Assembly: GCA_903893485.1 (NCBI GenBank)
Contig: CAITMK010000014.1
Location: forward strand, 2,144-66,143
Source of the DNA: Candidatus Magasanikiibacteriota bacterium
GTDB taxonomy: Bacteria; Patescibacteriota; Patescibacteriia; Magasanikbacterales; 2-02-FULL-50-9b
Length of the DNA: 64,000 bases
Direction of reading: 5' to 3'
A program made the position numbers and the translations under genes. The notes beneath the pieces were generated by a model. The model was given only the letters and a program-made list of their open reading frames with translations, had not been told where the DNA came from and searched no databases. This document shows, one piece after another, positions 5,210 to 61,265 of the stretch. Each line of letters starts with the position of its first letter. Within the stretch, counting starts at the first letter, position 1.

Positions 5210-8011
5210 TTACGCCCCATGACACTTCTTAAATTTCTTCCCGCTCCCGCAAGGACATTCATCATTGCGCCCAACCCCATGATATTTACTATCCATTGGC
5301 GTTTTGCTCATGCCGGCAAGTGCGGCGCCCGCGGCTTTCATGACATCGTCAACAATCTCGCCTTCATGCACGGTTTGTACCGGCATCGTGTCACCTTCTT
5401 TGGCAGCACCCGCAACTTCAAGACCCGCGCGCTGCAAAAGTGATGGCATCCACTGCGTTGCATTATTGATTTCCAAAATGCCATGCACAATATCTGAATT
5501 GATAAACGACAACAATTCCTGGAACAAACGATACGATTCGCGTTTGTATTCCACGAGCGGCTCACGCTGGCCGTAGCCACGCAAACCAATACCGGTACGC
5601 AAATAATTCAATGCTTCCAGATGTTCAATCCACAGCGTATCAATCGCACGGAGCATTACATTTTTAAATGTCTCACGTGCCTGCACGGGCGTCTCAAATG
5701 CCGCCGCGAACGCTGCAACGCGCTCTTTGGCATATTCTGCCATTGGCTCAATTAATTCGGTGCGGATGATTTGCGGCTCTTTGTGGCCCGCGTCTTCGAG
5801 CGGCGTTAAGAAACGTTTTGATTCATGCGCGTCGGTACCAAGCAAACGTGAAATTTCTTTTGCAAAATTTTCTTCGTCAACTTCGGTGTTTGCGGGAATT
5901 TCAGTGAAACGAAAAACGACTTGCTCAATTTCTTGTTCAAACAGCGCGCTTACCTGGCCGGTTAAAATTTCCAAACCAGTTTCTGATTCACCAGCTGCCA
6001 AAATTTCGGAGCGCTTTTTGTAAATCACTTCGCGATGACGATTCAAAACATCATCGTACTCCAAAAGATGCTTACGAATATCAAAGTTATGTCCTTCAAC
6101 TTTTTTCTGTGCGGTTTCCAAAGATTTGGTAATCAAAGAATGCTCGATTGGCATGTCTTCTGGCACATCCAGGCGCTTCAACAAATTTTTCATGCGGTCG
6201 GATCCAAAAATACGCATGAGATCATCCTCGGCGGAAATAAAGAATTGCGTTTCACCCGGATCACCCTGGCGACCTGCGCGGCCACGAAGCTGATTATCGA
6301 TGCGGCGCGATTCGTGGCGCTCGGTACCAAGCACGAACAAACCACCAACGCCGCGCACAGTTTCCTGCTCTTCCTTAATAACTGGATTACCACCAAGTAA
6401 AATATCAACGCCACGACCTGCCATGTTAGTTGCAAGCGTCACGGCGCCTCGGCGGCCAGCTTGCGCAACGATTTCACCTTCTTTTTCGTGATTTTTCGCA
6501 TTCAACATTTGGTGTGGCACACCAGCTTTCGCAAGCATGTCGGAAAGCATTTCATTTTTTTCAATCGAAATTGTACCAATCAAAATTGGCTGGCCACGTT
6601 CGCTACGTTCTTTAACCTCGCGCACCACGGCCTGGAATTTCCCCTGCTCGCTCGCGTAAATGCGATCACCCAAATCCACGCGTGAATTTTTTCGATGCGG
6701 CGGAATTACCGTAACTTCGAGTTTATAAATTTTTCCAAATTCTTCAGCTTCGGTAACTGCAGTACCGGTCATACCGCCAATTAAACCGTACAAGCGGAAA
6801 TAATTTTGGAATGTAATTGTTGCAAGTGTCTGCGATTCGCGCTGAATTGCAACGTGTTCTTTAGCTTCAATCGCCTGATGCAAACCTTCGGAATAACGGC
6901 GACCAACCATTAAGCGGCCCGTAAATTCATCGACAATCAAAACTTCGTTGTCTTTTACCACGTAATCTTTATCGCGCTTAAACAAAACTTCAGCACGAAG
7001 TGCAGAATCAATATGGTGCACCAAACGGTGGCCACCGGCAACATACAAATTTTCAACGCCCAATAATTTTTCGCACTCAGCAACACCCGCTTCGGTTAAG
7101 GTAACCGCGCGCTGCTTTTCGTCTTGCGTATAATGCTCATCTTTTTTGAGCTGACGAGCAATGTCTGCACATTTATAATACGTTTGCGCTGCCTCTTCGG
7201 CTGGCGCGCTAATGATCAAAGGTGTGCGCGCTTCATCAATTAAAATTGAATCAACTTCATCAATAAGCGCATATGCCAATTCGCGCTGCACCTGCTCTGC
7301 AGATGAAGACGCCATGTTGTCGCGCAAATAATCAAAACCAAATTCGTTGTTGGTACCGTATGTAATATCGGCAGCATACGATGCCTTACGCGTTGCCGGG
7401 CGTAAATAATCCATTTCCACGTGAAAACTGCCGAGCGTATCGCGCTCAACGTCTTCCGGTGTACCCTGATCAGTTAATCCGTCGGCTGTAACTTTATTCA
7501 CGACTTTAAATTCTGGATCGTACACGTACGAAGTCATTTGCTGCTGAATAATACCAACAGACAAACCGAGCGCATGAAAAATCTGACCCATCCAAACCGC
7601 GTCACGTTTTGCCAAATAATCATTCACCGTAACCACATGCACGCCGCGGCCCGTGAGCGCATGCAAATACACTGGCAACGTTCCGGTTAACGTTTTACCT
7701 TCACCGGTGCGCATTTCGGCAATGTTGCCGCGATGGAGCGCAATTGCACCCATGAGCTGCACGTCGTAGTGAAACTGGCCGATCGTGCGCTTTGCAGCTT
7801 CACGAACGGTTGCGTAGGCTTCGGGCAAAATATCATCCAAACTTTCCCCGCCAGCAAGACGGGTTTTAAACTCCGCAGTTTTGGCGCGCAAATCTGCATC
7901 AGAAAGCTGGCCATATTCTGGCGCCAATGCGTTAATCTGATCAACCAGCGGTTTTAAAGCTTTGATAACCTGCGCGTTCGGATCGCCGAAAAGTTTGGTG
8001 AGAAATGACAT
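5210..8011 (-). CDS. secA: Preprotein translocase ATPase SecA
   Basis: Full-length SecA with DEAD motor motifs and C-terminal zinc finger CPCGSGKKFKKCHG; real start MSFLTKLFGD at 8011 (the track ORF starts further upstream). Confidence 0.97.
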   Translation of the reverse strand: MSFLTKLFGDPNAQVIKALKPLVDQINALAPEYGQLSDADLRAKTAEFKTRLAGGESLDDILPEAYATVREAAKRTIGQFHYDVQLMGAIALHRGNIAEMRTGEGKTLTGTLPVYLHALTGRGVHVVTVNDYLAKRDAVWMGQIFHALGLSVGIIQQQMTSYVYDPEFKVVNKVTADGLTDQGTPEDVERDTLGSFHVEMDYLRPATRKASYAADITYGTNNEFGFDYLRDNMASSSAEQVQRELAYALIDEVDSILIDEARTPLIISAPAEEAAQTYYKCADIARQLKKDEHYTQDEKQRAVTLTEAGVAECEKLLGVENLYVAGGHRLVHHIDSALRAEVLFKRDKDYVVKDNEVLIVDEFTGRLMVGRRYSEGLHQAIEAKEHVAIQRESQTLATITFQNYFRLYGLIGGMTGTAVTEAEEFGKIYKLEVTVIPPHRKNSRVDLGDRIYASEQGKFQAVVREVKERSERGQPILIGTISIEKNEMLSDMLAKAGVPHQMLNAKNHEKEGEIVAQAGRRGAVTLATNMAGRGVDILLGGNPVIKEEQETVRGVGGLFVLGTERHESRRIDNQLRGRAGRQGDPGETQFFISAEDDLMRIFGSDRMKNLLKRLDVPEDMPIEHSLITKSLETAQKKVEGHNFDIRKHLLEYDDVLNRHREVIYKKRSEILAAGESETGLEILTGQVSALFEQEIEQVVFRFTEIPANTEVDEENFAKEISRLLGTDAHESKRFLTPLEDAGHKEPQIIRTELIEPMAEYAKERVAAFAAAFETPVQARETFKNVMLRAIDTLWIEHLEALNYLRTGIGLRGYGQREPLVEYKRESYRLFQELLSFINSDIVHGILEINNATQWMPSLLQRAGLEVAGAAKEGDTMPVQTVHEGEIVDDVMKAAGAALAGMSKTPMDSKYHGVGRNDECPCGSGKKFKKCHGA

Positions 8012-12788: not shown

Positions 12789-13664
12789 ATGGATACCGAA
12801 TCACTGCGCGCGCTCGTACACGCGCATGAGCAACCACGACGCCAAGCGCTTTCTTCCAAACTGCCACATCTCAAACGTGGAATTATTTTGGCACGGCGCA
12901 CGCATCGGTCCATTACAAATTATTTAAATCCTGCGATTCAAAATAAAAAATCAAAAACTTTTTTTACTCATGTGATTGCGCGTCACCAAAGTGTGTTGGT
13001 GCGTAAACTTGGCAACAGCGATGTAAAATTGCAGGAAGAAAAAATTATCAATTTACGTCGTGCCTGCGAAGATTTAAACGGCATCATCATTGAACCAGGC
13101 AAAATTTTTTCGCTGTGGCATTTGATTGGCCAACCAACACATGCCAAAGGGTACGTAACTGGCATGCTGCTTTCGAATGGGAAAGTCGTGCCGGGCATCG
13201 GCGGTGGTCTGTGCCAACTTTCAAATTTTTTGTGCTGGATTTTTATGCACGCCGACACCAAAATTATTGAGCGTTACCACCATTCCATGGATGTGTTCCC
13301 TGATTCTGGCCGCGTGTTGCCATTTGGCAGTGGCGCAACGTGCCTTTATAATTTTATTGATTTAAAAATCAAAAACACGGGTGCTGAGCCACTGCAATTA
13401 AAAATTTGTGTCACCGATACGCATCTTAAAGGCCAGCTCGTTTCACCAAAATCAGCTGACGCTAAATTCTCAGTGTTTGAAGCCGAGCACTGCTTTGTAA
13501 AAACTACAAAAAAATATTTTCGATACAACGAAATTTTTCGCGCAAAAAAAATTAATGGTCAAGAAATTTCGCAGGAAAAATTATTTACTAATTTTGCGCC
13601 TGTTTTGTATCCAGTCACATCAGAATATTTAACCGAAAATAATTTTACTGTGGTCGAACTATAA
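12789..13664 (+). CDS. VanW-like protein
   Basis: VanW family signature GIGGGLCQLSNFL; only plus-strand gene in this neighbourhood. Confidence 0.8.
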   Translation: MDTESLRALVHAHEQPRRQALSSKLPHLKRGIILARRTHRSITNYLNPAIQNKKSKTFFTHVIARHQSVLVRKLGNSDVKLQEEKIINLRRACEDLNGIIIEPGKIFSLWHLIGQPTHAKGYVTGMLLSNGKVVPGIGGGLCQLSNFLCWIFMHADTKIIERYHHSMDVFPDSGRVLPFGSGATCLYNFIDLKIKNTGAEPLQLKICVTDTHLKGQLVSPKSADAKFSVFEAEHCFVKTTKKYFRYNEIFRAKKINGQEISQEKLFTNFAPVLYPVTSEYLTENNFTVVEL

Positions 13665-13718: not shown

Positions 13719-14708
13719 TTACTTGGGCGTGCCCGGCGTCGACACGATCACCTCATCACTTTCCAGAAAAGTCGATCCGAACAAAACACGTTCCAGCTGA
13801 ATTTGCGGCGGCATGCCATGCTCAGACCTCTTCAAGCGGATAAACATCCGCTCATTCTGGCCTTCGCTCTCGACGTAAGACATCGCAGTGTACGCCTTCC
13901 GCTCAGACCCGCGCCCAAAGCCGCTCAAGTTGAACGAACAACGATGCCACTCTTCCTGAAACCAGTAACCGGTTGGATTGTAGCAAAACATGATGCACAT
14001 GAACACCACTTGCGCTGGCGTTGCCGCGCGGTCCGATGAAACCGTATTCCCCACGCTCGGCTCGTATGCAATCCAGCGCCATTCAACTTCTTGTGGAGGC
14101 TGATAGAGAGACAGCACGCCAAAGCCCTCACGATCTGTTGTCCGTGGTGGAAAACAAATCTCTGGCCACGAACCACTACCTCTCGGAAACCACTCCAGCA
14201 GATTCGCCAGCGTCAAGTCCGGATGCATGGGATAAAGCAGTGCTGCCGGCGTTGCACCTTGCGTGTGCGTCTCAACCGCTTTCGGCAAGTCCTCTTGCAG
14301 TTTCTCGATCTGCGCAGCCGTGAAACGCACGTGTCCACGCATGGCCCGCTCAACTTCAACAGGGTGCACGATCCTGCGCGCCATGGGAGGCTTGCGATCA
14401 ATCACAAAGCTTTCCGCAATGGGATTTGTACCCATGAAGCGCGCCAACATGTCATCGATTTCGACGCAGGTGATTTGCCCATTACTCAGCGCCAGCAACA
14501 ATCGATTGATCCAGATACCCGCGCCAAGAAATTCACAAAGCGCTTCAGGATCGAACACGCCCTCTCGTGCAACTTCAAGGGCGCGTTTGGCCAGCCGCCA
14601 TTGAAAGTTCTCGCGCTGTGCGTGTTTGCCATGGCCGTGCCACCGGTCCTGCCAATAGGCGGCGTCAAACATTTGTTGAAGCGTCGGAAGTGAACGAATA
14701 ACACTCAT
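13719..14708 (-). CDS. GC-rich island A hypothetical protein (329 aa from ATG, 340 aa from the upstream GTG)
   Basis: About 60% GC ORF with SD GAGG 7 nt before ATG at 14708, its own terminator, and no recognisable domain; aromatic/Trp-rich. Confidence 0.5.
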   Translation of the reverse strand: MSVIRSLPTLQQMFDAAYWQDRWHGHGKHAQRENFQWRLAKRALEVAREGVFDPEALCEFLGAGIWINRLLLALSNGQITCVEIDDMLARFMGTNPIAESFVIDRKPPMARRIVHPVEVERAMRGHVRFTAAQIEKLQEDLPKAVETHTQGATPAALLYPMHPDLTLANLLEWFPRGSGSWPEICFPPRTTDREGFGVLSLYQPPQEVEWRWIAYEPSVGNTVSSDRAATPAQVVFMCIMFCYNPTGYWFQEEWHRCSFNLSGFGRGSERKAYTAMSYVESEGQNERMFIRLKRSEHGMPPQIQLERVLFGSTFLESDEVIVSTPGTPK

Positions 14709-14851
14709 TGTCAACCTCACGTTGCTCACCACGAATTTCACGAGGACAAGGCAGCTCTTTGCTGCCGATGCCAGTTCGTAATTCCTTGCAGCAAGCTAAA
14801 GGCATCCACCGCGGATGCTGCGCAAAACCTTACGCGCAATTTTTAAAAATG

Positions 14852-16795
14852 TCAATTTGCCCCGGCCGCGGCCTGCGCTGCCCGATACCCTGCCCACCAC
14901 GTATAAAATTGTTTTGCCGCTGGCACCGCAGCCGTTGCACCTTCAACACCTTCTTCAATTAAAAATACGGTTACGATTTCTGGTTTTTCGTATGGCGCAT
15001 ACGAAACAAACCATGCGTGCGGCTGTTTGGTAGTTGACCACTGCGCGGTACCGGTTTTACCCGCAACCGTGACACCAACATTTTGCAAACTACGGGCGGA
15101 GCCAGCCAAAATCGTCTGACGCATACCTTCGCGCACCACCTGCAGCCACTGCGAATCCACCGGAACTTTCGCGCGCATCGCCGGCGCCACAACATACGTG
15201 GATCCATCTGGCAATAATCGCGATTCCACCAATTGTGGTTTCCAAAGTGTGCCGTCATTGGCAATGGCAGAAATTCCCATTGCCATTTGCAGTGGCGTCA
15301 CCAAAATATCACCTTCACCAATCGACATATTATACGTATCGCCCGGATACCAGGCCTCACCCTTGGTTTCTTTTTTCCATGCTGGCGATTGCACAAAACC
15401 ACGTGCCTCGCCCGGCATATCAACGCCCGTATCGGAGCCAAAACCAAAATATTCCAAATATTGTTTCATGCGATCCGGACCCAAACCATCATTGCCCGTG
15501 CGTCCACCACCTAACAAATAGAAAAATGTATTCACGGATTCCGCAATCGCTTTGCGTACATCGGTTACGCCATGTCCGCCCGCTTTCCAATCCGGAAAAT
15601 AATGATTCCCCAACTGAATACCACCAACAGAATTTACCGTTGTCGTTGGCGTAATCACCCCTTCTTGCAAACCAGCTGCCGCATAAAATGGCTTGATAAT
15701 CGAACCCGATGGAAATTGTCCACCAATCACACGATTCAAAAGTGGCTGATCCGGCCCAGTAGTAAGAGCCGTGTAAGCTGCAGGCGAAATCGTATTAGAA
15801 AATAAATTTGGATCAAAACCCGGCAGTGAAACCATGCCTAAAATTTGTCCGTTACGCGGATCAACTGCAATCGCGCTACCACGCGTGCGATTTGAAACTT
15901 TTAAGCCCAACTGCAGCGCCGATTCCAACTGCTGTTGAATTTGCAAATCAATGCTAAGCACCAAGCCATCGCCCGGCACCGGATCAGTCACCGAAACCGT
16001 ACGCTGCTCCGCGCCGCGTGCGTTAAATTCCGCATCGCGCGCACCGGGCACGCCGCGTAAATAAGTTTCCATGGAATCTTCCAAACCCGTTTTACCAATC
16101 AAATCAGTTGGATAATATTCCTCATCCACATGTGATTCCAATTCATCCGCAGAAATACGCCCCATGTAACCCAAAACATGCGCCATACTTTCAGGCAAAG
16201 GCGTTTGGCTGCCTGGCACGCCCGCAACATATAAACGTTTTGCCGAACGTTCAATCGTTAGCCCTGGAAACGCCGCGCTTTTTAAATAAACTTGCACGGC
16301 TTCATCGTATGTAATCGGATCTTTTACCACGACACTTGCGTAGGAATATTTTTGAAATGCATCAAGCATGGCATTAATTTTATCTTCACCAACGCCAACC
16401 GTTGCGCCAATCTGACGAATCACGGCTTCGCGATCCGTAGCATTACGTGGTAAATCCTGTGCGCGCAACGTGAGTCGAAAGTTTGGCACATTCGTTACGA
16501 GCGGTACCATATTGCGGTCAAATAAAATGCCGCGCTCTGGAATAATCGGCTGCGTGTGCAATCGATTATGATCCGACAAAACTCGCCACGCGTTACCCTG
16601 CACGAGTTGTAATTGCACCACGCGTGCAGTAAGCGCACACAAAACCAATGCTGCAAAAAGTCCAAAAACTTTAATGCGCGTACCACCAACAGCGGCTCCT
16701 AAAAATCCAGAATTTTCATCTGTTGCAACAGGCGCCGCATCTTCCACCCATTGATTTCGCCGCTGGATAAAAACTCCACTTTGAAACCATTTCAT
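14852..16795 (-). CDS. mrdA: Penicillin-binding protein 2 (MrdA), elongasome transpeptidase
   Basis: PBP2 dimerisation plus transpeptidase domains (SxxK, KTGTAQ); start MKWFQS at 16795 gives a 4-nt overlap with mreD. Confidence 0.9.
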   Translation of the reverse strand: MKWFQSGVFIQRRNQWVEDAAPVATDENSGFLGAAVGGTRIKVFGLFAALVLCALTARVVQLQLVQGNAWRVLSDHNRLHTQPIIPERGILFDRNMVPLVTNVPNFRLTLRAQDLPRNATDREAVIRQIGATVGVGEDKINAMLDAFQKYSYASVVVKDPITYDEAVQVYLKSAAFPGLTIERSAKRLYVAGVPGSQTPLPESMAHVLGYMGRISADELESHVDEEYYPTDLIGKTGLEDSMETYLRGVPGARDAEFNARGAEQRTVSVTDPVPGDGLVLSIDLQIQQQLESALQLGLKVSNRTRGSAIAVDPRNGQILGMVSLPGFDPNLFSNTISPAAYTALTTGPDQPLLNRVIGGQFPSGSIIKPFYAAAGLQEGVITPTTTVNSVGGIQLGNHYFPDWKAGGHGVTDVRKAIAESVNTFFYLLGGGRTGNDGLGPDRMKQYLEYFGFGSDTGVDMPGEARGFVQSPAWKKETKGEAWYPGDTYNMSIGEGDILVTPLQMAMGISAIANDGTLWKPQLVESRLLPDGSTYVVAPAMRAKVPVDSQWLQVVREGMRQTILAGSARSLQNVGVTVAGKTGTAQWSTTKQPHAWFVSYAPYEKPEIVTVFLIEEGVEGATAAVPAAKQFYTWWAGYRAAQAAAGAN

Positions 16796-20262: not shown

Positions 20263-20304
20263 GACCACTTTGTTTCGCACACGCGGACAAGGTGGTCATT
20301 TTTT
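20263..20304 (+). terminator. Intrinsic terminator of B1
   Basis: GACCACTTTG-loop-CAAGGTGGTC followed by ATTTTTT. Confidence 0.65.
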
Positions 20305-20346
20305 ATAAAAAAAGCGCCAGCGCCCGCGAGGTGTGCGGGGCTGGCG
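20305..20346 (-). terminator. Intrinsic terminator of B2 (copy 1 of 40-bp module)
   Basis: Minus strand CGCCAGCCCCGCACACCTCGCGGGCGCTGGCGC + TTTTTTT; near-identical copy at 20985-21023. Confidence 0.75.
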
Positions 20347-20376: not shown

Positions 20377-20739
20377 TTATTCGCTGTAGAGGCACGAGAT
20401 GAAGAGCGATTTTGTAATGCCACCGCGAGCGGCTTGTACCTGACACGACTCGCCGACCTTCAGGCGATTCCAATCTTCTCGCGTAACTGAGAGATTAGCT
20501 TCACCTTCATCAATACGAAGCCTCAGCGTAAAGCGATCTTGCGAAACGCGAACCGAGTAGCGACTGCTCGGCTGAATTGCTCCGGGAGCCTGCGTTTTGC
20601 TCACCACCACGGCTTTGCACCGACCCAGATTCTTGCCGAACAAGACCTGGTCGATACAAGAAAATACCATGAAGATGAGCACGCCAGCGAACGTGATCAG
20701 GATCGCCAAGAGTATGAAATTACTAAGAAAATTCAACAT
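20377..20739 (-). CDS. GC-rich island B2: single-pass membrane protein with about 90-aa beta-rich ectodomain (DUF3592-like?)
   Basis: Start MLNFLSNF with SD GGAGTGG; TM helix FILLAILITFAGVLIFMVF, then RYSVRVSQDRFTLRLRID ... SVTREDWNRLKVGESCQV. Confidence 0.5.
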   Translation of the reverse strand: MLNFLSNFILLAILITFAGVLIFMVFSCIDQVLFGKNLGRCKAVVVSKTQAPGAIQPSSRYSVRVSQDRFTLRLRIDEGEANLSVTREDWNRLKVGESCQVQAARGGITKSLFISCLYSE

Positions 20740-20984
20740 TGTCCACTCCAAATCGTACAGCTTAGCCCATGATTGTGTAATAGCTGCAAATTGCACAACA
20801 AAACAGCATAGCATAAATATGCCGTTTTGTCAATGCTTTTAGTGTTACAGACTCAATAATCGCCGTGCTTTTTCATAACCATCTTCATCATTTTCCAGAT
20901 CGCGCAAAACCTCTGTCACGTTTGAAAATTGGGCTTGTAGTTTTTTTAAAAAACGCATGTCGCCTATGGATTTAGGATCTTAAT

Positions 20985-21023
20985 AAAAAAGCGCCAGCGC
21001 CCGCGAGTTGTGCGGGGCTGGCG
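20985..21023 (-). terminator. Intrinsic terminator of B3 (copy 2 of 40-bp module)
   Basis: AAAAAAGCGCCAGCGCCCGCGAGTTGTGCGGGGCTGGCG; differs from copy 1 by a single G/T. Confidence 0.75.
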
Positions 21024-25572: not shown

Positions 25573-26091
25573 CTACACCTCGGATGCGCCCGCAGAATTC
25601 GTAGCGAAGATAACGCGTGCGAACACAGAGGCTGGAAGCACTTTCGCTTTCAAGCGCTGCCACGTGGTCGGTTTGCCGTACTGATACAGCTTGAGCGACG
25701 GAAAATCCCGGAGATTCCACAGCGCCGCGCGTGCCGCACCTACATGCGTGACGTCCGTCCAGACCTTGATGACGGTATCCCGTGAGATTTCGCTCGCAAG
25801 CAGGTATTGATGGAACACCACCGTGCTCTGCTGCACCGAATCGCCACCGTAAAGCGTGACGAACGTGGGAGTTTGCTGATTTCCGTGAGGATCTCGCAGT
25901 GCCCACTCCTGCCTCAAATAGTCCAAAATGGCCGTGTGATTGCCTTCGCCACAGAGCGCAACAACCGTTCGGGCGTTGTGCTGCTTGGCAAGAGCGATCG
26001 CGTCGTCTAAGTAATGCTGATGATCAAATGTCTCCGGATTCACGTCGCGACACAAAATCGCAAGGCAGACTGGATGTTTGTTGAATTGCAT
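25573..26091 (-). CDS. GC-rich island C hypothetical protein (172 aa; weak DUF218/YdcF-like resemblance)
   Basis: SD AGGAGG 6 nt before ATG; TTGACA-17-TATTTT promoter with TGn extension; LCGEGNH ... TLYGGDS pattern. Confidence 0.5.
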   Translation of the reverse strand: MQFNKHPVCLAILCRDVNPETFDHQHYLDDAIALAKQHNARTVVALCGEGNHTAILDYLRQEWALRDPHGNQQTPTFVTLYGGDSVQQSTVVFHQYLLASEISRDTVIKVWTDVTHVGAARAALWNLRDFPSLKLYQYGKPTTWQRLKAKVLPASVFARVIFATNSAGASEV

Positions 26092-26119: not shown

Positions 26120-26148
26120 AAAATACCAGCTAAGTCGGTTTCTGTCAA
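26120..26148 (-). promoter_or_regulatory. Sigma70-type promoter of island C gene
   Basis: Minus strand TTGACA-N17-(TGg)TATTTT. Confidence 0.55.
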
Positions 26149-26220: not shown

Positions 26221-28064
<1,844 letters not shown>

Positions 28065-28154
28065 TTTCGTGGTATGGTTGATGGGAGTCGAACGTCATTT
28101 TTCGCTTAAACACTTCGTTTTTAGCTGAAACTGGCCCGATCCCTGGAGGGTGTC

Positions 28155-28796
28155 ATGTTGCGTCGAATCGCTTCGTTTCTGGTTCTCTTTGTGCTCTGCT
28201 TCACAACGACGCCGGCATTTGCTTGGGGTCGCGGTGGTGGTGGAGGTGGTGGTCATGGCGGCGGCGGTTACCGCGGAGGTGGTGGCGGCTGGACCGGTGG
28301 CTATCGCGGCGGTGGCGGAGGTGGTTACTACAACGGCGGTTACCGCAGCGGTGGCAGCTGGGGTGGCTACAGCACCTGGGGCACTAGCCCTCGGTACGTA
28401 AACGCTTGGAACTACCCGAACCGGATCGTCTATCCCGCGCCCGTGCCGATGTGCACGTACCGCGACAGCTGGGGACGAATCTATCAGGCGATCTGCGTGG
28501 CACGTCCGGCCGTGGTGTATGCGCCGCCCGTGCAGCAATACGTGCAGCCCGCGCCGATCCCGCAGCAATACCTGGCGGATCAGCCGCCGGTATACGGACA
28601 GCCGCAGCAGCAAGTAGCTGCCCCGGCTCCGCCCGCAGCTGTTCAAGGCACGCACACCTTCGGCTGCTACCAGGCGCGCGACAACAACTTCTGGTACTGC
28701 GACGCAGACCAGCAGAAGTTCGCCAGCTGCACGCCGGCGGATACCACAGGCAACTTCGTTTGCCAGCAGCAAGTGATCGAATACGTCCGGCCATAA
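28155..28796 (+). CDS. GC-rich island D: secreted Gly/Tyr/Arg-rich, Pro/Gln-rich, Cys-rich protein (213 aa)
   Basis: Signal peptide MLRRIASFLVLFVLCFTTTPAFA; GGGGYRGGGGG repeats; PQQ/PAP linker; 6-Cys C-terminal domain; about 62% GC; opposite strand to the atp operon. Confidence 0.6.
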   Translation: MLRRIASFLVLFVLCFTTTPAFAWGRGGGGGGGHGGGGYRGGGGGWTGGYRGGGGGGYYNGGYRSGGSWGGYSTWGTSPRYVNAWNYPNRIVYPAPVPMCTYRDSWGRIYQAICVARPAVVYAPPVQQYVQPAPIPQQYLADQPPVYGQPQQQVAAPAPPAAVQGTHTFGCYQARDNNFWYCDADQQKFASCTPADTTGNFVCQQQVIEYVRP

Positions 28797-28822
28797 TGCC
28801 GCGCCGTTCGATCGCCAACCCA

Positions 28823-28864
28823 GGCTCCGACCACACAAGCGTGTGGCTCCGGAGTCCTTTTTTA
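28823..28864 (+). terminator. Intrinsic terminator of island D gene
   Basis: GC hairpin (CCACAC-AAGC-GTGTGG core) followed by TTTTTTATTTAT. Confidence 0.6.
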
Positions 28865-35086: not shown

Positions 35087-36603
35087 TTAAGTTAATTGTG
35101 GGAATAATGGATCCGCCGCGAGTAACACTCCACCTGGCTGCAGCAAACCCCATTCCATAATTTTTTCGAACTGAGGTTCGTAGGATTCAAAACCAAGTTG
35201 CGCCAATATTTTTTCTGATGACGCGGGCATGAATGGCGAAATCGCAAATGCAATCTGTCGCAAACCTTCGATCAAAGTGTAGAGTGTACGATCAACATCC
35301 GCGGTGCGCCCTTCTTTGGCAGCGGTCCATGGTTTTTCTTTGTCGATGAGTTGATTTAAACTGCGCACAAAATCCCACACCACTTCGAGCGCGAGTTGGA
35401 ATTCCCATTTTTCCATGTGCTCGGCATAACGGCTCCAAAAAATTTCGTGCGTTGCTTCGGTAATCGCTGGCACCACGCCTTCACAAAATTTAATATCCAT
35501 GGCAATCGTGCGCATGACTAAATTTCCTAAATCGTTTTGCAAATCGGCGCGATAGCGTTGTTCCAATTTGGTGAAAGAAAAATCACCATCGCCACCAAAC
35601 GGCATTTCGCGAAACAAGAAAAAGCGAAACGGATCCAAACCGTATTTAGAAATAATGTCGAGCGGATTTACCACATTGCCCAAAGACTTTGACATTTTTT
35701 GACCATCCACCGTAAGCCATCCGTGCGCTACAATTTTGCCCGGAAGCGGCAACTGCGCGGACATCAGCATTGCGGGCCAGAGCAGCGCGTGGAACCGATT
35801 GATTTCCTTAGCCATCACATGCGCATTTGCTGGCCACCACTCTGTAAAAAAATCATCTTGCGCTTCATCGCCATACCCAACTGCGGTTACATAATTAGTA
35901 AGCGCGTCAAACCACACGTACATTACTTGCGAGTCATCGCCCGGCACGGGAATGCCCCATGATAATTTTTCAACGCTGCGCGAAATTGAAATGTCTTCTA
36001 AACCTTCGTCCAAAAGATGACGCATTTCTTTTTGGCGATTTTGTGGAAACACAAAATCCATGTGCTCATCAAAATGTTTTTTTAGCGCGTCAGAATATTT
36101 TGAGAGACGGAAAAAATAATTTTCTTCTGCAAGTAATTCTGGTTTTTTTAAATGAATCGGGCAACGGCCTTCGGTGTCCAAATCTTTTTCGTTGTAAAAT
36201 TGTTCGCAGCCAACGCAATACAAACCTTCGTAAGTTTTTTTGTAAATATCGCCTGCTGCCGCGGCAGCCTCCCAAAATTTTTGAGCGCCCGCAATATGGC
36301 GCGGTTCGGTGGTACGAATAAAATCCGTGTTTGAACACCCCAGCGTTGTATGTAAATCACGAAACGTTTGTGCAATGCCATCAACAAACTGTTGTGGCGT
36401 CACGCCCGCTGCATCTGCGGCGCGCGCAATTTTTTGGCCGTGCTCGTCGGTACCGGTTAAAAAATTAACTTCTTTGCCCTGCAAGCGCTGAAACCGAGCC
36501 ATAATATCTGCCGCAATAGAAGTATACGCATGGCCAATATGAGCCGATGCGTTCACATAATAAATTGGCGTCGTGAGGTAATAATGGTCGGATCGCTTTG
36601 ACA
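35087..36603 (-). CDS. metG: Methionyl-tRNA synthetase
   Basis: TTPIYYVNASAHIGHAY (HIGH), KMSKS present; real start MSKRSD about 36603 (track ORF extends upstream through GC-rich DNA). Confidence 0.95.
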
Positions 36604-36641
36604 TATGGGACCAGCTTATCAAAAAATACGCGGCCGCGCAA

Positions 36642-36679
36642 TAAAAAAATCTGTGCAAGGTCCCGAAGGTCCTTGCACA
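36642..36679 (-). terminator. Intrinsic terminator of island E gene
   Basis: Perfect palindrome CTGTGCAAGGTCCCGAAGGTCCTTGCACAG followed on the minus strand by ATTTTTTTATT. Confidence 0.8.
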
Positions 36680-36705
36680 GAGTCGCTGCGACGCACGCCG
36701 AAGTT

Positions 36706-37299
36706 CTAGGCGTGCAGCACAAGCGTGGTGCCAGCCGACAGCAGATGGCCGGGCGTGCCGAATGGAGTGCGTTCCACCATAATGCCAGACCCCTTGGGCT
36801 TTGCTTCGTACACCCAACGCTCGCCTTCAGCGCTGACAAACGCCGCCAGTGGCAAATTGTTGCGCCGACGGCGACTGCAGTACCCCAAGTAGGCCAAGAA
36901 GGTCGCCTCCGTAATGGACGCGGACAGGTATGGGCCAAGCGCGTCATCTTTGCAGAGAAACGTCGGCTCCACCTGATAGCGCAGACTTGCGACGCACACC
37001 GCACCGCCCGGAAATCCACCCGTCGGAATCGATTCATCGACCCGCTCCGGATTGATTCCCCGAACCAGCATGTCGTACTCCAAAAAGTACCCGCAGGACA
37101 AATCTCGGTGCGTGAGCCAAACGCGCGCGAGAAGAATGTCCACTTCCTTCAACGCACGATTAACCTTGCCGAATGCGCCGTCTTCAGGCGCGCCCACCAC
37201 GAGGCGAGCGATGTCGGTTACGGTACGCACAATTTCGCAATAGACACCGGCGACTTGCCGCAACCCCGTTTGGGGATGAAAATTCAAAGTCTGATGCAT
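36706..37299 (-). CDS. GC-rich island E hypothetical protein (197 aa)
   Basis: SD GAGGGGG 7 nt before ATG; canonical promoter and operator upstream; no recognisable domain. Confidence 0.5.
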   Translation of the reverse strand: MHQTLNFHPQTGLRQVAGVYCEIVRTVTDIARLVVGAPEDGAFGKVNRALKEVDILLARVWLTHRDLSCGYFLEYDMLVRGINPERVDESIPTGGFPGGAVCVASLRYQVEPTFLCKDDALGPYLSASITEATFLAYLGYCSRRRRNNLPLAAFVSAEGERWVYEAKPKGSGIMVERTPFGTPGHLLSAGTTLVLHA

Positions 37300-37310
37300 G
37301 GAAACCCCCT

Positions 37311-37363
37311 CGTACTGTTCAGTACGTAAAAAAGATTGTAGTTACAAAATATAAAAAAGTCAA
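37311..37363 (-). promoter_or_regulatory. Promoter TTGACT-17-TACAAT with perfect palindromic operator CGTACTG-NN-CAGTACG at the predicted TSS of the island E gene
   Basis: Minus-strand -35 at about 37363-37358, -10 at about 37340-37335, palindrome 37311-37326 immediately upstream of the SD. Confidence 0.55.
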
Positions 37364-37366
37364 GTA

Positions 37367-38080
37367 TTACTGCGGCGCCAAAACAATAACAAATTCGCCG
37401 CGCGTTTCTTCAGCTTTGAGCTGCGATAAAACTTCTGCGGGCGTGCCACGATATAATGTTTCGTGAATTTTGGTAAGCTCACGCGCGAGAAGCATTTGGC
37501 GAGCAGGCGCAACGCGCGCAACATCTTGCAGTGTTTTTGAAATACGATGTACTGATTCTAAAAAGACCACGGTTTCTTCGGTGGCCGCAACTTCGTCAAA
37601 AAATTTGTTGCGTTTATTTTTATGGGGCGCAAAACCCATAAAACGGAACCGGTCGGTAGGAAAACCAGAAACCGAAAGCGCAGCCGTAACGCATGACGCA
37701 CCAGGAATTGGAGAAATTTCAATTTCTGGATGTTGCGTTGCAATGGTATGCACAAAAAAATTGCCTGGATCGGAAATGCCCGGCGTACCCGCATCGGTAA
37801 CAAGCGCAGCCTCCCCTACTTTTTGCAGCGACGCCACCGCACGCTGAATTTCTTGTGGCGTGCTGTGATGATGGAGTGATGCAACCGATGGCGTCGCGCC
37901 AATATGTGCCAATAATTTGGAAGTCATGCGCGTATCTTCCGCAAAAACAAGCGGTACAGCCAATAAGACCTCACGCGCGCGGGCCGTGAGGTCTCCTAAA
38001 TTTCCAATTGGCGTTGCTACAATATACAGTTTCACACTAATCAATGTACACGGAGTTCTTAGAGAATGCAATGTCACCAA
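37367..38080 (-). CDS. rsmI: 16S rRNA (cytidine1402-2'-O)-methyltransferase RsmI
   Basis: LYIVATPIGNLGDLT ... AEDTR motif; probable GTG start at about 38035. Confidence 0.85.
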   Translation of the reverse strand: MVTLHSLRTPCTLISVKLYIVATPIGNLGDLTARAREVLLAVPLVFAEDTRMTSKLLAHIGATPSVASLHHHSTPQEIQRAVASLQKVGEAALVTDAGTPGISDPGNFFVHTIATQHPEIEISPIPGASCVTAALSVSGFPTDRFRFMGFAPHKNKRNKFFDEVAATEETVVFLESVHRISKTLQDVARVAPARQMLLARELTKIHETLYRGTPAEVLSQLKAEETRGEFVIVLAPQ

Positions 38081-39688: not shown

Positions 39689-40981
39689 TTATTTTTTCAT
39701 CCAGTGAGGCACACCGTCTTCGACGAATGCACTGTGCGCTGCAATATTTTCTTGTTTTTGATCCATTGAGAGATTGAGCGGCGAAATTGACCGCAGAAGT
39801 GCGACAACCGGTGGAAGCACTTCGAGCACGTGATCAATATCTTCGCGCGTAGTAGACGCGCCGAGTGTCATACGAAGCGATCCATGCGCATATTCATATG
39901 GCTTGCCCATCGCCAAAATCACGTGTGATGGATCGAGCGATGTTGAAGTGCATGCCGAACCGGTTGAAAGCGAAATTCCAAATTCATCCATGTAAAGTAG
40001 CGCGGCTTCGCCTTCGATATCTAAAATCGTAAAATTCAAATTATTTGGCAAACGATTCGTCGGATGGCCATTCAAAATTACTTTTGGTACACGCACTTGA
40101 ATTTCGGCCCACAAATAATTGCGAAGTTCAGCAAGACGCGCATTTTCGGTTTCACGTTTTTCTGTTGCAATTTCCAACGCGCGTGCAAGCCCTACAATCG
40201 CAGGAACGTTTTCAGTACCCGAACGAAGTCGATTTTCCTGACCGCCACCAACGATAAGTGGTACAAGTTGTACGCCGCGGCGTACATACAAAATCCCAAC
40301 ACCTTTTGGCCCATAAATTTTAGAACCATTCAGTGTAAGCAAATCAACTTTTAATTCATCAACGTTTAGGTTGAGCGCGCCAGCTGCCTGACATGCATCG
40401 GTGTGCAAAAAAGGCGGATCAATTGGCTTGCGGCCATTGTCTTTTTTCCAACGCTGAATCGCCGCGCCAATTTCTGCAATTGGCTCAATAGTGCCAACTT
40501 CATTGTTGGCATACATAATTGAAATCAAAACAGTTTCCGGGCGAAGCGCTGCAATAATATTTTCAACCGAAACTTCGGCGTGTTCATTCACGGTTGTTTC
40601 AGTAATTTCAAAACCTTCTTTTTTTAAAACTTCAGTTGGAAGCAAAACTGCATGATGTTCGATTTGGCTAGTTATAATATGCTTTCCCCATTTTGCACCG
40701 TACTTGCGGGCAATGCCAAAGAGTGCCAAATTATCACTTTCCGTGCCGCCGCCGGTAAAAATAATTTCTTCTGGACGTGAATGTAAAATTTGAGCGATTG
40801 ATTCGCGCGCGCTTGAAAGCGCTTCACTTGCATCGCGAGAAATTTCGTACAAACCGCTTGGATTACCAAAGTGGTCCGTGAAGTATGGAAGCATCGCTGC
40901 AACAACGTCTGGATGCGTTGGAGTGGTCGCCGCATGATCTAAATATACAATTCGTTTTTCAATTTCAGAAAGTGATTTCAT
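39689..40981 (-). CDS. Cysteine desulfurase (NifS/IscS family)
   Basis: PLP-dependent class V aminotransferase, active-site SGSACTS. Confidence 0.9.
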   Translation of the reverse strand: MKSLSEIEKRIVYLDHAATTPTHPDVVAAMLPYFTDHFGNPSGLYEISRDASEALSSARESIAQILHSRPEEIIFTGGGTESDNLALFGIARKYGAKWGKHIITSQIEHHAVLLPTEVLKKEGFEITETTVNEHAEVSVENIIAALRPETVLISIMYANNEVGTIEPIAEIGAAIQRWKKDNGRKPIDPPFLHTDACQAAGALNLNVDELKVDLLTLNGSKIYGPKGVGILYVRRGVQLVPLIVGGGQENRLRSGTENVPAIVGLARALEIATEKRETENARLAELRNYLWAEIQVRVPKVILNGHPTNRLPNNLNFTILDIEGEAALLYMDEFGISLSTGSACTSTSLDPSHVILAMGKPYEYAHGSLRMTLGASTTREDIDHVLEVLPPVVALLRSISPLNLSMDQKQENIAAHSAFVEDGVPHWMKK

Positions 40982-41391
40982 ACTTTTTTGATAAGATCCG
41001 CGACAGTTATTGATTGTAAATATTTTTGAATATACGCATTGATGGTATGAAAATTAGTACGCGTCATGCACACCGATGCGTGAGGACAGCTCACGTCATT
41101 TACAGTAAGACAAGGCACCATGGCCATTTCACCTTCAAGTGCATCAGCGACTTTGAGCACCGTGATTTTGTCGGCAGGCAAAGCAAGTTTATAACCCCCG
41201 CTGCGTCCTTTGGATGCGGTCACCAAGTTTGCCGCACGAAGTTTACCTACAATGCGCTGCAAAAAAAGAAACGAAACGCGCCCACGCTTTGCAAATACTG
41301 ACAACGCCAAACTCTCCCCTTCTTGAAGTTTTGAAAGGGCTGCTAAAAATTGGAGTGCGTAATCGGTTTGTTTGTTGAGGGTTAAGGCCAT
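40978..41391 (-). CDS. Rrf2-family transcriptional regulator (IscR-like, 3-Cys)
   Basis: wHTH MALTLNKQTDYALQFL; CLTVNDVSCPHASVC cluster ligands. Confidence 0.85.
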   Translation of the reverse strand: MALTLNKQTDYALQFLAALSKLQEGESLALSVFAKRGRVSFLFLQRIVGKLRAANLVTASKGRSGGYKLALPADKITVLKVADALEGEMAMVPCLTVNDVSCPHASVCMTRTNFHTINAYIQKYLQSITVADLIKKV

Positions 41392-41519
41392 AAATACATA
41401 CCATTCAGGCATGTGAAATACATTACCAGAACTAATTCAGACTGTCAAGGTATGTTATTAATGCGGCTAAAACCAGATTTTCTTGCTTTATTAGCCTAAA
41501 CTTCGTATAGTAATCACAT

Positions 41520-59376: not shown

Positions 59377-59411
59377 ATCTTCCGCCTATAATAGCTCATT
59401 TTATTGACGCA

Positions 59412-61265
59412 ATGCAAGCCGCCTTTTATACTGCATCCATGAAACAACACATTATCTCACTACTTTTCATTGTAAGTCCGCTGGTCATCTGTACCGGACT
59501 TCCCTATCCACAGATTCTGCCACGCACGATTCTGATTGGTCTACTCGGCGCCGCGGCGCTTGGTTTTGAATTTTATGAGGCTAAAAAAATACAATTTACG
59601 CTTGTGGAATGTGCCTGGCTCACCTTCTTTGCAGCGCTCATCACATCTTCATTACTTGGCGGTCAATTTGCGCACAGTCTTTGGAGTACCCTTGAGCGTG
59701 GCACCGGTCTTTTCTTTTTTGCAAGTTGCGCGGCGTTTTATCTCGTTCTAAAAAAAGATTTTAAAGCCGCTGCGCCGCTTCTTACCAACACCATCACCTA
59801 TACGCTGATCGTGATGAGCGTATTTGCAATTGCGCAAAAATTATTTCCTGGTTTTGCACAAACATTTTCAGGCAATCGTATTGGCGGCACCCTGGGCAAT
59901 GCAATTTTCTTTGGCATGTATCTTACACTTAACATTTTTTTGGTGGGATTATTTTGGGAAAAAAAGCACCGCATACTTCAGTCGATTGCGATTGCTAGCG
60001 GTTTAATCGCTCTTGGACTCGCCGCTGTTACGGGCCCGGTAGCGGGTTTTATTGCCGGGCTTCTCATCACAGCCACAATTTTGCTTTATCAAAAATATCC
60101 TCGTTTAATTATTGCATTTTCTAGCGTAGTAATAGTCATTGCCCTCTGTGGTGCATTATTTTTAGGCCCAAATTCAATCAAAAAATTACCAACATTTCAA
60201 AGTCGTTTAGTTAACTGGAGTATTGGCTACAAAAATTTTAAAGCGCATCCAATTTTCGGAACCGGATGGGAATCGTATCAAGCGGTTGCGGCCGCAAATT
60301 TTGATCCGCGACTTATTAATTTTGGTGGCGCCGAAACGTATCCGGATAAACCACATAATGCATACATTGAATTGCTCAGTAGCACGGGCATCGTTGGCAC
60401 AATCTTATATTTTTGTTTCATCGCAGCACTTTTTTGGACTGCCCTTTATTTATATCGACACAAAAAAATTTCACTTTTGCAGTTTGCAATAAGTGCTGGT
60501 TTTTTAACAACGTACCTGGTACAAAATTTTTCTGCGTTCGAAACCCACGGAACTCTAATTCCACTTACCATTTTTGCCGCATGGACTGGCGCGCGACAGG
60601 AAAATAAAATTTTTAGCACTTCGCCAAAAATTATTTTGGGAACCAGTACCATACTTTTTGTGATCTGTTATTGGATCGGCATCATGAGTTGCATTCCAGA
60701 ATTTATCGCGCTCAAAAATGCAGATGGCGCCGCGCTCAGTCAAAAACTTTCTTCAATATATCGAACAGAATATTTCAGCGTATTAAATCCTGCCGATGTC
60801 TCACAAGTTACTGCGGTTGTACGAAATTTTAAACCGCAAACCGCATGGGATGATTTAATTCTGGCAAAATTTTTGGGGTCCGCCGCAACGTTTCATCCAG
60901 AATTTGTTGAAGTTGCCGAAACTGCAATTGCGCGTGCAATTAATACAAATCCAAAACGACAAGAATTATTTATCATAAAAGGTCAGCTCGCGCTTGCACA
61001 AAATAATCTCAATGACGCAACACTGGCATTTAGCGAAGCAATCGCAATTGAGCCGCGCACCTCACAGCCACATTATTTGCTCGGACTCGTTTTATTTGCT
61101 CAAAATAATAACGATGTCGGTTGGACCGAAATTCAACTCGCCGCTTCGCACGGATTAAAATCGGCATCGCGCACTTCACTTATTTTTATTGCACAAAAAC
61201 TGCAAGCAGCAAACATGCAAAACCAATTACAAATTCTTGAAACAACCTTTACCCCAACTGAATAA
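59412..61265 (+). CDS. O-antigen ligase-like membrane protein with TPR domain, paralogue 3
   Basis: Same architecture (GNAIFFGMY ... KPHNAYIELLSSTG). Confidence 0.7.
   Translation: MQAAFYTASMKQHIISLLFIVSPLVICTGLPYPQILPRTILIGLLGAAALGFEFYEAKKIQFTLVECAWLTFFAALITSSLLGGQFAHSLWSTLERGTGLFFFASCAAFYLVLKKDFKAAAPLLTNTITYTLIVMSVFAIAQKLFPGFAQTFSGNRIGGTLGNAIFFGMYLTLNIFLVGLFWEKKHRILQSIAIASGLIALGLAAVTGPVAGFIAGLLITATILLYQKYPRLIIAFSSVVIVIALCGALFLGPNSIKKLPTFQSRLVNWSIGYKNFKAHPIFGTGWESYQAVAAANFDPRLINFGGAETYPDKPHNAYIELLSSTGIVGTILYFCFIAALFWTALYLYRHKKISLLQFAISAGFLTTYLVQNFSAFETHGTLIPLTIFAAWTGARQENKIFSTSPKIILGTSTILFVICYWIGIMSCIPEFIALKNADGAALSQKLSSIYRTEYFSVLNPADVSQVTAVVRNFKPQTAWDDLILAKFLGSAATFHPEFVEVAETAIARAINTNPKRQELFIIKGQLALAQNNLNDATLAFSEAIAIEPRTSQPHYLLGLVLFAQNNNDVGWTEIQLAASHGLKSASRTSLIFIAQKLQAANMQNQLQILETTFTPTE

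Follow-up and report, generated by a model that had tools for sequence, protein, structure and literature searches.

On the minus strand of the window (the whole 64-kb stretch of DNA analysed here), a 197-aa orphan ORF (36706-37299), called the 'island E gene' in an earlier note on this DNA, lies between two housekeeping genes. On its 5' side is rsmI (37367-38035; 222 aa), which encodes a 16S rRNA (cytidine1402-2'-O)-methyltransferase (Pfam TP_methylase, 9.7e-30), and on its 3' side is metG (35087-36604; 505 aa), which encodes a methionyl-tRNA synthetase (Pfam tRNA-synt_1g, 2.9e-109). A 222-aa form of RsmI in the protein collections (P0002) is 99% identical to the protein encoded here, and close homologues are named RsmI in their sources; the best genome matches, at 65-70% identity, are from Candidatus Magasanikbacteria MAGs, followed by other Patescibacteria, which assigns the window to a CPR genome near Magasanikbacteria.

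The rsmI stop codon (TAA, 37369-37367) is separated from the ATG of the orphan (37299-37297) by an intergenic gap of 67 bp (37366-37300; 33% GC). Read along the minus strand, this gap contains a -35 hexamer, TTGACT (37358-37363), a spacer of 17 nt, a -10 hexamer, TACAAT (37335-37340), the perfect 7-2-7 palindrome CGTACTG-AA-CAGTACG (37311-37326), and a Shine-Dalgarno-like AGGGGG (37305-37310), which abuts the palindrome and lies 5 nt 5' of the ATG.

An orphan gene between rsmI and metG

The composition of the orphan ORF is foreign to its surroundings, with a GC content of 59% and a GC3 of 68% (0.59 and 0.68), as compared with a GC content of 0.46 for the window and GC3 values of 0.40-0.45 for the neighbouring genes. 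Because its GC content is periodic across codon positions (0.63/0.46/0.68; chi-square p = 4e-5), the orphan is probably protein-coding rather than an RNA gene. Rfam covariance models gave no match in 36400-37600 at E values up to 1. A search of 5.8 billion (5.8e9) clustered proteins, together with a full HMMER search against 1.84e9 representatives, returned a sole homologue (P0001), which is 99% identical, differs by one I-to-S substitution, and comes from the same strain and locus in another sample (L081). The protein had no match in Pfam (down to E = 10), PADLOC, PHROGs or the PDB sequences, and the cassette that carries it had no BLASTN match among plasmids. A single-sequence AlphaFold2 model predicted the N-terminal half to be helical, at a pLDDT of 44, which is too poor for a fold search.

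The arrangement of this locus in related genomes shows where the orphan has been added. In the five closest relatives examined (L001, L002, L268, L269 and L271), the gene order is rsmI, a tiny ORF, metG, cvpA and tatD. The tiny ORF begins 4-16 nt from rsmI, encodes 51-68 aa (His/Gly-rich with a hydrophobic tail, as translated from L001 and L002), and is separated from its neighbours by a few nucleotides. In more distantly related Patescibacteria, metG comes directly after rsmI, mostly within ~30 nt and at most ~200 nt away. The tiny ORF was not found in the window by tblastn; its place is occupied by ~760 bp that run from the promoter to the terminators described below, and none of the relatives examined carries this cassette. 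One further relative (L270) has another insertion at the rsmI/metG junction, consisting of two genes whose products (318 and 339 aa) match nothing in Pfam. Within the species itself, the cassette is present in all eight contigs, which share at least 99.7% identity and represent six or more samples; the promoter is found in all eight and the palindrome in each contig that reaches that far. The cassette is thus fixed in the population, and no empty site occurs among these eight same-species contigs, from which neither the insertion boundaries nor selection can be read.

The 3' end of the orphan is marked by an intrinsic terminator on the minus strand (36639-36681; inverted repeat I3), whose 14-bp stem (36681-36668 paired with 36663-36650) is closed by a TTCG loop and followed by a T-run. 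The 101-nt 3' region of the orphan folds at -44.9 kcal/mol (z = -4.72). A terminator scan also placed a second, small terminator-like hairpin on the minus strand, GCGCGGCCGCG with a T-run (36617-36640). This hairpin is overlapped by a weak putative promoter, TTGCGC-17-TAAGCT, with 8 nt between its end and the ATG of metG.

Its own terminator, its foreign GC content, its lack of homologues and its insertion relative to related genomes lead us to view the orphan as part of an autonomous, moron-like cassette of a single gene, comprising promoter, leader, Shine-Dalgarno sequence, orphan ORF and intrinsic terminator. In the concept of Juhala and Hendrix, morons are autonomous promoter-ORF-terminator units that lie between genes adjacent in related genomes. 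Like phage morons, the orphan is equipped with a sigma-70-like promoter and a factor-independent terminator of its own, it has an atypical composition (59% GC for the ORF versus 46%), and it sits between genes that are contiguous in relatives. Unlike them, it resides outside any prophage, in the housekeeping operon rsmI-metG on the chromosome of a CPR bacterium: there are no phage genes near the cassette and no PHROGs matches, and its neighbours, as assigned by Pfam, are rsmI, metG, cvpA, tatD, ATP synthase genes and isc genes.

The predicted promoter in the gap and the palindrome

Direct reading of the minus strand confirmed the TTGACT-17-TACAAT promoter that had been reported for the gap between rsmI and the orphan, and the perfect palindrome is present at 37326-37311 as described. 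An independent promoter scan recovered the promoter in the right orientation with 10 of 12 consensus positions matched; its hexamers are near TTGACA and TATAAT, and its spacer falls within the 16-18 nt of sigma-70-type promoters. By standard sigma-70 geometry, transcription would start at T37328 or A37327, 7-8 nt past the -10 hexamer, so that the dyad symmetry overlaps the predicted start region. The earlier placement of the palindrome at +2 to +17 holds if the start is A37327, itself a predicted position. A dedicated promoter is to be expected in this gap, since the downstream ORF is an autonomous unit that interrupts the rsmI-metG pair, and the promoter reading is supported as a reasonable one that agrees with the architecture of the cassette. 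No terminator precedes the gap, and read-through from rsmI is possible.

Both features exceed chance expectation only modestly. A promoter scan of the surrounding 3 kb found four sites, as compared with 3.9 expected in shuffled sequence, and, counting both strands, the window has 22 promoter-like sites matching at least 10 of 12 positions, of which several are intragenic; at this frequency, ~0.01 sites would be expected in the gap in the right orientation. As for the palindrome, 13 of the perfect 7-2-7 kind occur in the window. The broader class of perfect dyads (arms ≥7, spacer 0-4) has 44 distinct members there, versus ~28 ± 4 in first-order Markov simulations. From these counts and an intergenic density of 1.4 such dyads per kb, the chance of finding one in the leader is ~0.02-0.1. 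An internal control shows the same layout: within the coding region of vanW (Pfam VanW), TTGGCA-17-TATAAT lies at 13324 and is followed at its predicted start by another 7-2-7 palindrome, TTGATTTAAAAATCAA (13357-13372; whole layout 13324-13372), an occurrence that we ascribe to chance.

These figures bear on the simplest explanation, namely that the palindrome is functionless, a perfect dyad that arose by chance where an AT-rich leader adjoins a real or apparent promoter. We consider this unlikely on balance, and yet an explanation that carries real weight. Besides the abundance of palindromes and dyads in the window and the equivalent arrangement within vanW, it is favoured by the predicted fold of the 48-nt leader, which is no more stable than that of shuffled sequence (z = 0.12), and by the behaviour of the same pattern elsewhere: CGTACTGNNCAGTACG, with 14 specified bases, has 59 scattered matches in viral contigs, with all centre dinucleotides, no recurring context and mostly unremarkable surroundings. 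On the other hand, the dyad in the gap, without a mismatch in its 7+7 bp, falls exactly between the predicted start and the Shine-Dalgarno sequence, and the joint placement of promoter (~0.01) and dyad (~0.02-0.1) in one gap is improbable, though this combination was picked post hoc.

Readings of the palindrome

The earlier note had interpreted the palindrome as the operator of a dimeric helix-turn-helix repressor whose gene may lie elsewhere in the genome; a repressor bound at +2 to +17 would stand in the way of RNA polymerase. Among well-known repressor operators that overlap the transcription start are lac O1, tetO and the 7-1-7 boxes of Fur and Zur, with lac O1 centred at +11. The gap resembles these in having a 16-bp dyad centred at about +9.5 of the predicted start of a near-consensus promoter, comparable to lac O1; its symmetry is perfect, the innermost pair included, and with such a promoter the gene would otherwise be constitutively expressed. 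It differs from them in that neither a cognate regulator nor a second site was found, and it matches none of the operator consensus sequences tested.

The search for further copies of the palindrome that had been suggested found none, either in the 64 kb of the window or in 80 related CPR loci. Specifically, the 12-bp core has no further copy in the window at up to one mismatch, TACTG-N(0-14)-CAGTA occurs nowhere else in the window at any spacing, the best 16-mer relative of the palindrome in the window has three mismatches, and the 14-bp core is without a further copy in the 80 loci. The Rrf2 gene (40978-41412), named in the earlier note as the nearest regulator, lies about 3.6 kb away; no other regulator could be recognised in the ORFs that were scanned, and Pfam searches of the neighbourhood and most window ORFs revealed no other helix-turn-helix regulator. 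Its own promoter (TTGACA-17-TAATGT, with the ATG 7 nt past the -10 hexamer) contains no dyad similar to CGTACTG-AA-CAGTACG. Moreover, a dedicated host repressor is not to be expected for an orphan of foreign origin when the CPR genome that carries it is a reduced one, and the perfection of the dyad is atypical of natural operators, which are usually imperfect. Of the promoter-operator reading, then, the promoter half is upheld by the cassette context, while the operator half has gained no positive support. The evidence against a repressor acting in trans is circumstantial and comes from one near-clonal locus and 64 kb of sequence; we regard such an operator as improbable.

Alternatively, the cassette could be self-contained in its regulation as well, with the palindrome serving as an autoregulatory operator bound by the 197-aa orphan protein. 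The cassette already carries its promoter, Shine-Dalgarno sequence, ORF and terminator, a transferred gene would be unable to rely on a host repressor, and the N-terminal half of the protein is predicted to be helical. However, the protein has no DNA-binding domain detectable with Pfam (to E = 10) or among PDB sequences, the structure model is unreliable at its pLDDT of 44, and the pI of 6.95 is not basic. Autoregulation is possible but unsupported, since the protein is not basic and shows no DNA-binding domain in these searches, and we rate it slightly below the operator in trans; an operator of either kind, considered jointly, remains a doubtful proposition rather than a negligible one. A more far-reaching version would have the orphan be an autorepressor of undescribed fold acting on the 16-bp dyad, and the cassette a self-regulating, selfish, moron-type module whose invasion of the conserved rsmI-metG operon would have driven metG to use a new and perhaps leaderless promoter. 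This version we hold to be speculative and quite improbable.

Known operator types fare worse still. The E. coli SOS consensus is TACTG(TA)5CAGTA, and the half-sites of the gap dyad, TACTG and CAGTA, are identical to its outer bases. The earlier remark that these LexA-like half-sites have the wrong spacing is correct: CTG and CAG are 2 rather than 10 bp apart, which brings the halves 8 bp closer than in the E. coli box CTGT-N8-ACAG and is incompatible with the footprint of a canonical LexA dimer, and there is no evidence of a regulon. The ORF scan turned up no lexA gene, no correctly spaced E. coli-type LexA site occurs in the window, and Gram-positive-type (Cheo-type) boxes, GAAC-N4-GTTC, are at chance level there (26 versus 29.6 expected). 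The palindrome pattern is not among the LexA motifs in PMC8565304. With a spacing of N2 as against CTGT-N8-ACAG or GAAC-N4-GTTC, a canonical LexA box is effectively refuted. An Rrf2/IscR site is opposed by the Rrf2 promoter, which has no similar dyad. That the palindrome is a LexA/SOS box or any other operator of a known type thus seems extremely unlikely.

The exact 16-mer also occurs in at least 120 stretches of metagenome contigs. By an eye count of the flanks, it forms the apex of a long hairpin in roughly 40-45% of the first 120 of these matches. The element is ~160-200 nt long and is found in contigs of 55-68% GC; the flanks of its apex are conserved (CGCAGG-16-mer-TCGAGG), its stems vary in sequence and yet stay base-paired, and its ends are conserved as CCCG[C/G]ATTAT[T/G]CA[T/C]GAA..., with the reverse complement at the opposite end, the whole being bracketed by short palindromes that contain TA (CTAG or TTAA). 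At two loci there are two or three copies, in which the apexes of the extra copies are slightly different, and these multiple copies point to a family that is probably a multi-copy, MITE-like repeat. Rfam, plasmid BLAST and string searches of the literature gave no identification of the family, and the palindrome string itself retrieved only unrelated primer sequences from the literature.

Could the gap palindrome be a remnant or member of this long-hairpin element? It has in common with it the exact 16-mer, which in the family stands at the apex between conserved CGCAGG and TCGAGG flanks. However, the window shares these 16 bases only: the flanks in the gap neither align with those of the family (A2) nor extend or pair as a stem, the terminal repeat CCCGSATTATKCAYGAA is not above chance level in the window, and the family is found in contigs of 55-68% GC, which is not CPR-like DNA. 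As a candidate member, the palindrome was rejected; it lacks CCCGSATTATKCAYGAA ends, a stem of at least 60 bp and the CGCAGG/TCGAGG apex flanks. We therefore treat the identity of the 16-mers as coincidence and give membership next to no credence; even when it is pooled with LexA and the other known operator types, the combined probability is very small.

The palindrome may instead be a feature of the RNA. In the predicted fold of the transcribed sequence, a 6-bp stem closes a GAAC loop (about -6 kcal/mol), and the centroid fold of the leader consists of this hairpin alone, with AGGGGG largely unpaired. Only 1-2 nt separate the hairpin from the predicted 5' end, and on its other side the Shine-Dalgarno sequence follows immediately. 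If the palindrome has a role, we tentatively rank first that of a 5'-terminal stem-loop in the leader; it is likelier than an operator for a repressor acting in trans, though still well short of probable. The 67-bp gap would then supply both the promoter and a 28-nt leader for the autonomous cassette, a single-gene insertion at the rsmI-metG junction of a Magasanikbacteria-like CPR genome. With TTGACT-17-TACAAT as the promoter, transcripts would begin at ~37328/37327, the palindrome would be the first sequence transcribed, and its transcript, if it folds in vivo as predicted, would form the 6-bp GAAC-loop stem. A hairpin in this 5'-terminal position may restrict 5'-end-dependent decay enzymes while the ribosome binding site stays free.

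Stem-loops at the 5' terminus are known to stabilise mRNAs such as ompA and papA (Emory, Bouvet and Belasco 1992, in PMC3997798), and the RppH of B. subtilis needs at least two unpaired 5' nucleotides and prefers at least three (review PMC3997798). The gap hairpin is like those of ompA and papA in lying 1-2 nt from the predicted 5' end, so few unpaired nucleotides being the geometry that blocks RppH and 5'-end-dependent RNases, and in being followed by an accessible Shine-Dalgarno sequence. It is unlike them in that its stem is short and weak (6 bp, about -6 kcal/mol) and its start is a predicted one.

Several lines of evidence argue for the leader stem-loop. The 10/12 promoter, the Shine-Dalgarno sequence with its ATG and the strong terminator make up the architecture of a cassette, the predicted start leaves merely 1-2 unpaired 5' nucleotides, and the second site, the cognate regulator and the dyad in the Rrf2 promoter that would speak for an operator were all not found. 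Weak support comes from another GC-rich orphan island (13719-14741), in which a perfect 6-5-6 hairpin, GCATCC-GCGGT-GGATGC, follows TTGACA-17-TAAGGT at the same predicted position. Across the window, however, hairpins at predicted starts occur at five of 116 promoter-like sites, versus a background of 1.7% (~2 expected), an enrichment that is not convincing.

Other observations weigh against the leader stem-loop. The stem is weak, and the fold of the leader, as noted above, is no more stable than that of shuffled sequence. A 2-nt loop is too short for the G-C at the inner end of the 7-bp arms to pair, and the seventh symmetric position therefore suits a dyad acting at the DNA level slightly better than an RNA hairpin. 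The start is predicted, and with no terminator before the gap, read-through from rsmI is possible. All eight same-species contigs are at least 99.7% identical and offer no variation for covariation.

Gene gain in conserved operons

The layout of promoter and palindrome is in itself ordinary regulatory anatomy. Were the dyad truly an operator, it would be among the very few regulatory sites defined in Patescibacteria, and it would offer a handle on how newly acquired orphan genes are controlled in reduced genomes. At present, the value of the locus lies in its context and not in the dyad. Several GC-rich orphan genes in the window are autonomous promoter-to-terminator units that stand among housekeeping genes, and orphan cassettes are inserted even within the rsmI-metG and ATP synthase operons. 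Foreign, self-contained orphan cassettes set into conserved operons thus provide a concrete picture, open to testing, of how CPR bacteria gain genes.

The rsmI-metG junction

In relatives, rsmI and metG are separated by a tiny conserved ORF, 51-68 aa in length (L001:6716-6910, L002:4024-4209, L268:3180-3335, L269:3181-3378 and L271:3176-3346), and its translations from L001 and L002 start MADAHG, are rich in His and Gly, and end in a hydrophobic tail. This ORF is absent at the junction in the window, where the studied cassette resides, and no copy was detected elsewhere in the 64 kb. At the same junction a Magasanikbacteria-like relative carries a different insertion, comprising two unknown genes of 318 and 339 aa (L270:3387-5377). 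The rsmI-metG junction seems to be a site of repeated insertion. We also observed on this relative's contig a NifU gene product with LAGLIDADG/intein Pfam hits (L270:1-1141).

Other samples yielded four short contigs of the window's species, and all of them terminate within the 67-bp gap upstream of the orphan ORF, at window positions 37306 (L264 and L267), 37333 (L265) and 37356 (L266), with two of the four ending immediately past the palindrome. These ends could reflect low coverage, or strain heterogeneity that leads to assembly-graph branching at the cassette boundary.

The layout and the 16-mer in other settings

Within the vanW coding region, a promoter-like TTGGCA-17-TATAAT (13324-13372, +), matching TTGACA/TATAAT at 11 of 12 hexamer bases, has at its predicted start a perfect 7-2-7 palindrome, TTGATTTAAAAATCAA. 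The pairing is a control for chance occurrence of the studied gap's layout.

Among the metagenome matches listed, an intergenic, multi-copy, long-hairpin element of ~160-200 nt recurs in GC-rich contigs, and its apex is the same 16-mer as the window palindrome, CGTACTGAACAGTACG. The apex has conserved flanks (CGCAGG/TCGAGG), the stems vary in sequence from copy to copy while pairing is kept, and the conserved ends are CCCGSATTATKCAYGAA, with CTAG/TTAA on either side. Copies were located at L160:391-566, L164:1425-1600 and 5298-5475, and L093:2111-2310 and 7024-7223, as well as in L113, L185, L151, L138, L141, L182 and others. No match was found in Rfam, among plasmids or by literature string search, and the element looks like an undescribed MITE-like repeat.

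A series of GC-rich orphan ORFs

Besides the studied cassette, the window holds four more GC-rich ORFs (GC 0.49-0.63, measured on the analysed ORFs or frames); these are placed among housekeeping genes, which makes the cassette one of a series. Promoter-like sites lie upstream of 25573-26091 (-; TTGACA-17-TATTTT at 26148), 20377-20814 (-; TTGACA-17-TATGCT at 20833) and 28155-28796 (+; TTGACA-17-TATGGT at 28050), each with at least 10 of 12 matches. For 13719-14741 (-) the upstream site, TTGACA-17-TAAGGT at 14855, matches at 9 of 12 bases. Some of the four are followed 3' by terminator-like hairpins, and the three minus-strand ORFs, when tested, had no match in Pfam, PADLOC or PHROGs.

The plus-strand ORF, 213 aa long (region 28050-28838), sits between atpG and atpD on the strand opposite to them. 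It has a signal-peptide-like N-terminus, a repeat region rich in Gly, Tyr and Arg (GGGGGGGHGGGGYRGGGGGWTGGYRGGGGGG...) and a Cys-containing C-terminal part, and the underlying DNA forms a tandem repeat family in a 47-nt register. Separately, ORF 20377-20814 is flanked by a 44-nt direct repeat (20303-20346 and 20980-21023; 93% identical, 677 nt spacing) that includes a terminator-like hairpin (GCGCCAGCGCCCGCGAG...) and could mark a duplication or an insertion.

Leaders of native genes and cassettes

In several native genes the ATG comes just 6-10 nt 3' of a -10-like hexamer (41445-41410, Rrf2; 36641-36602, metG; 59404-59440; 53941-53900), suggesting that this organism makes leaderless or near-leaderless mRNAs. 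The orphan cassettes whose ATGs lie at 37299 and 26091 differ: each has a leader of 28 nt with a Shine-Dalgarno sequence.
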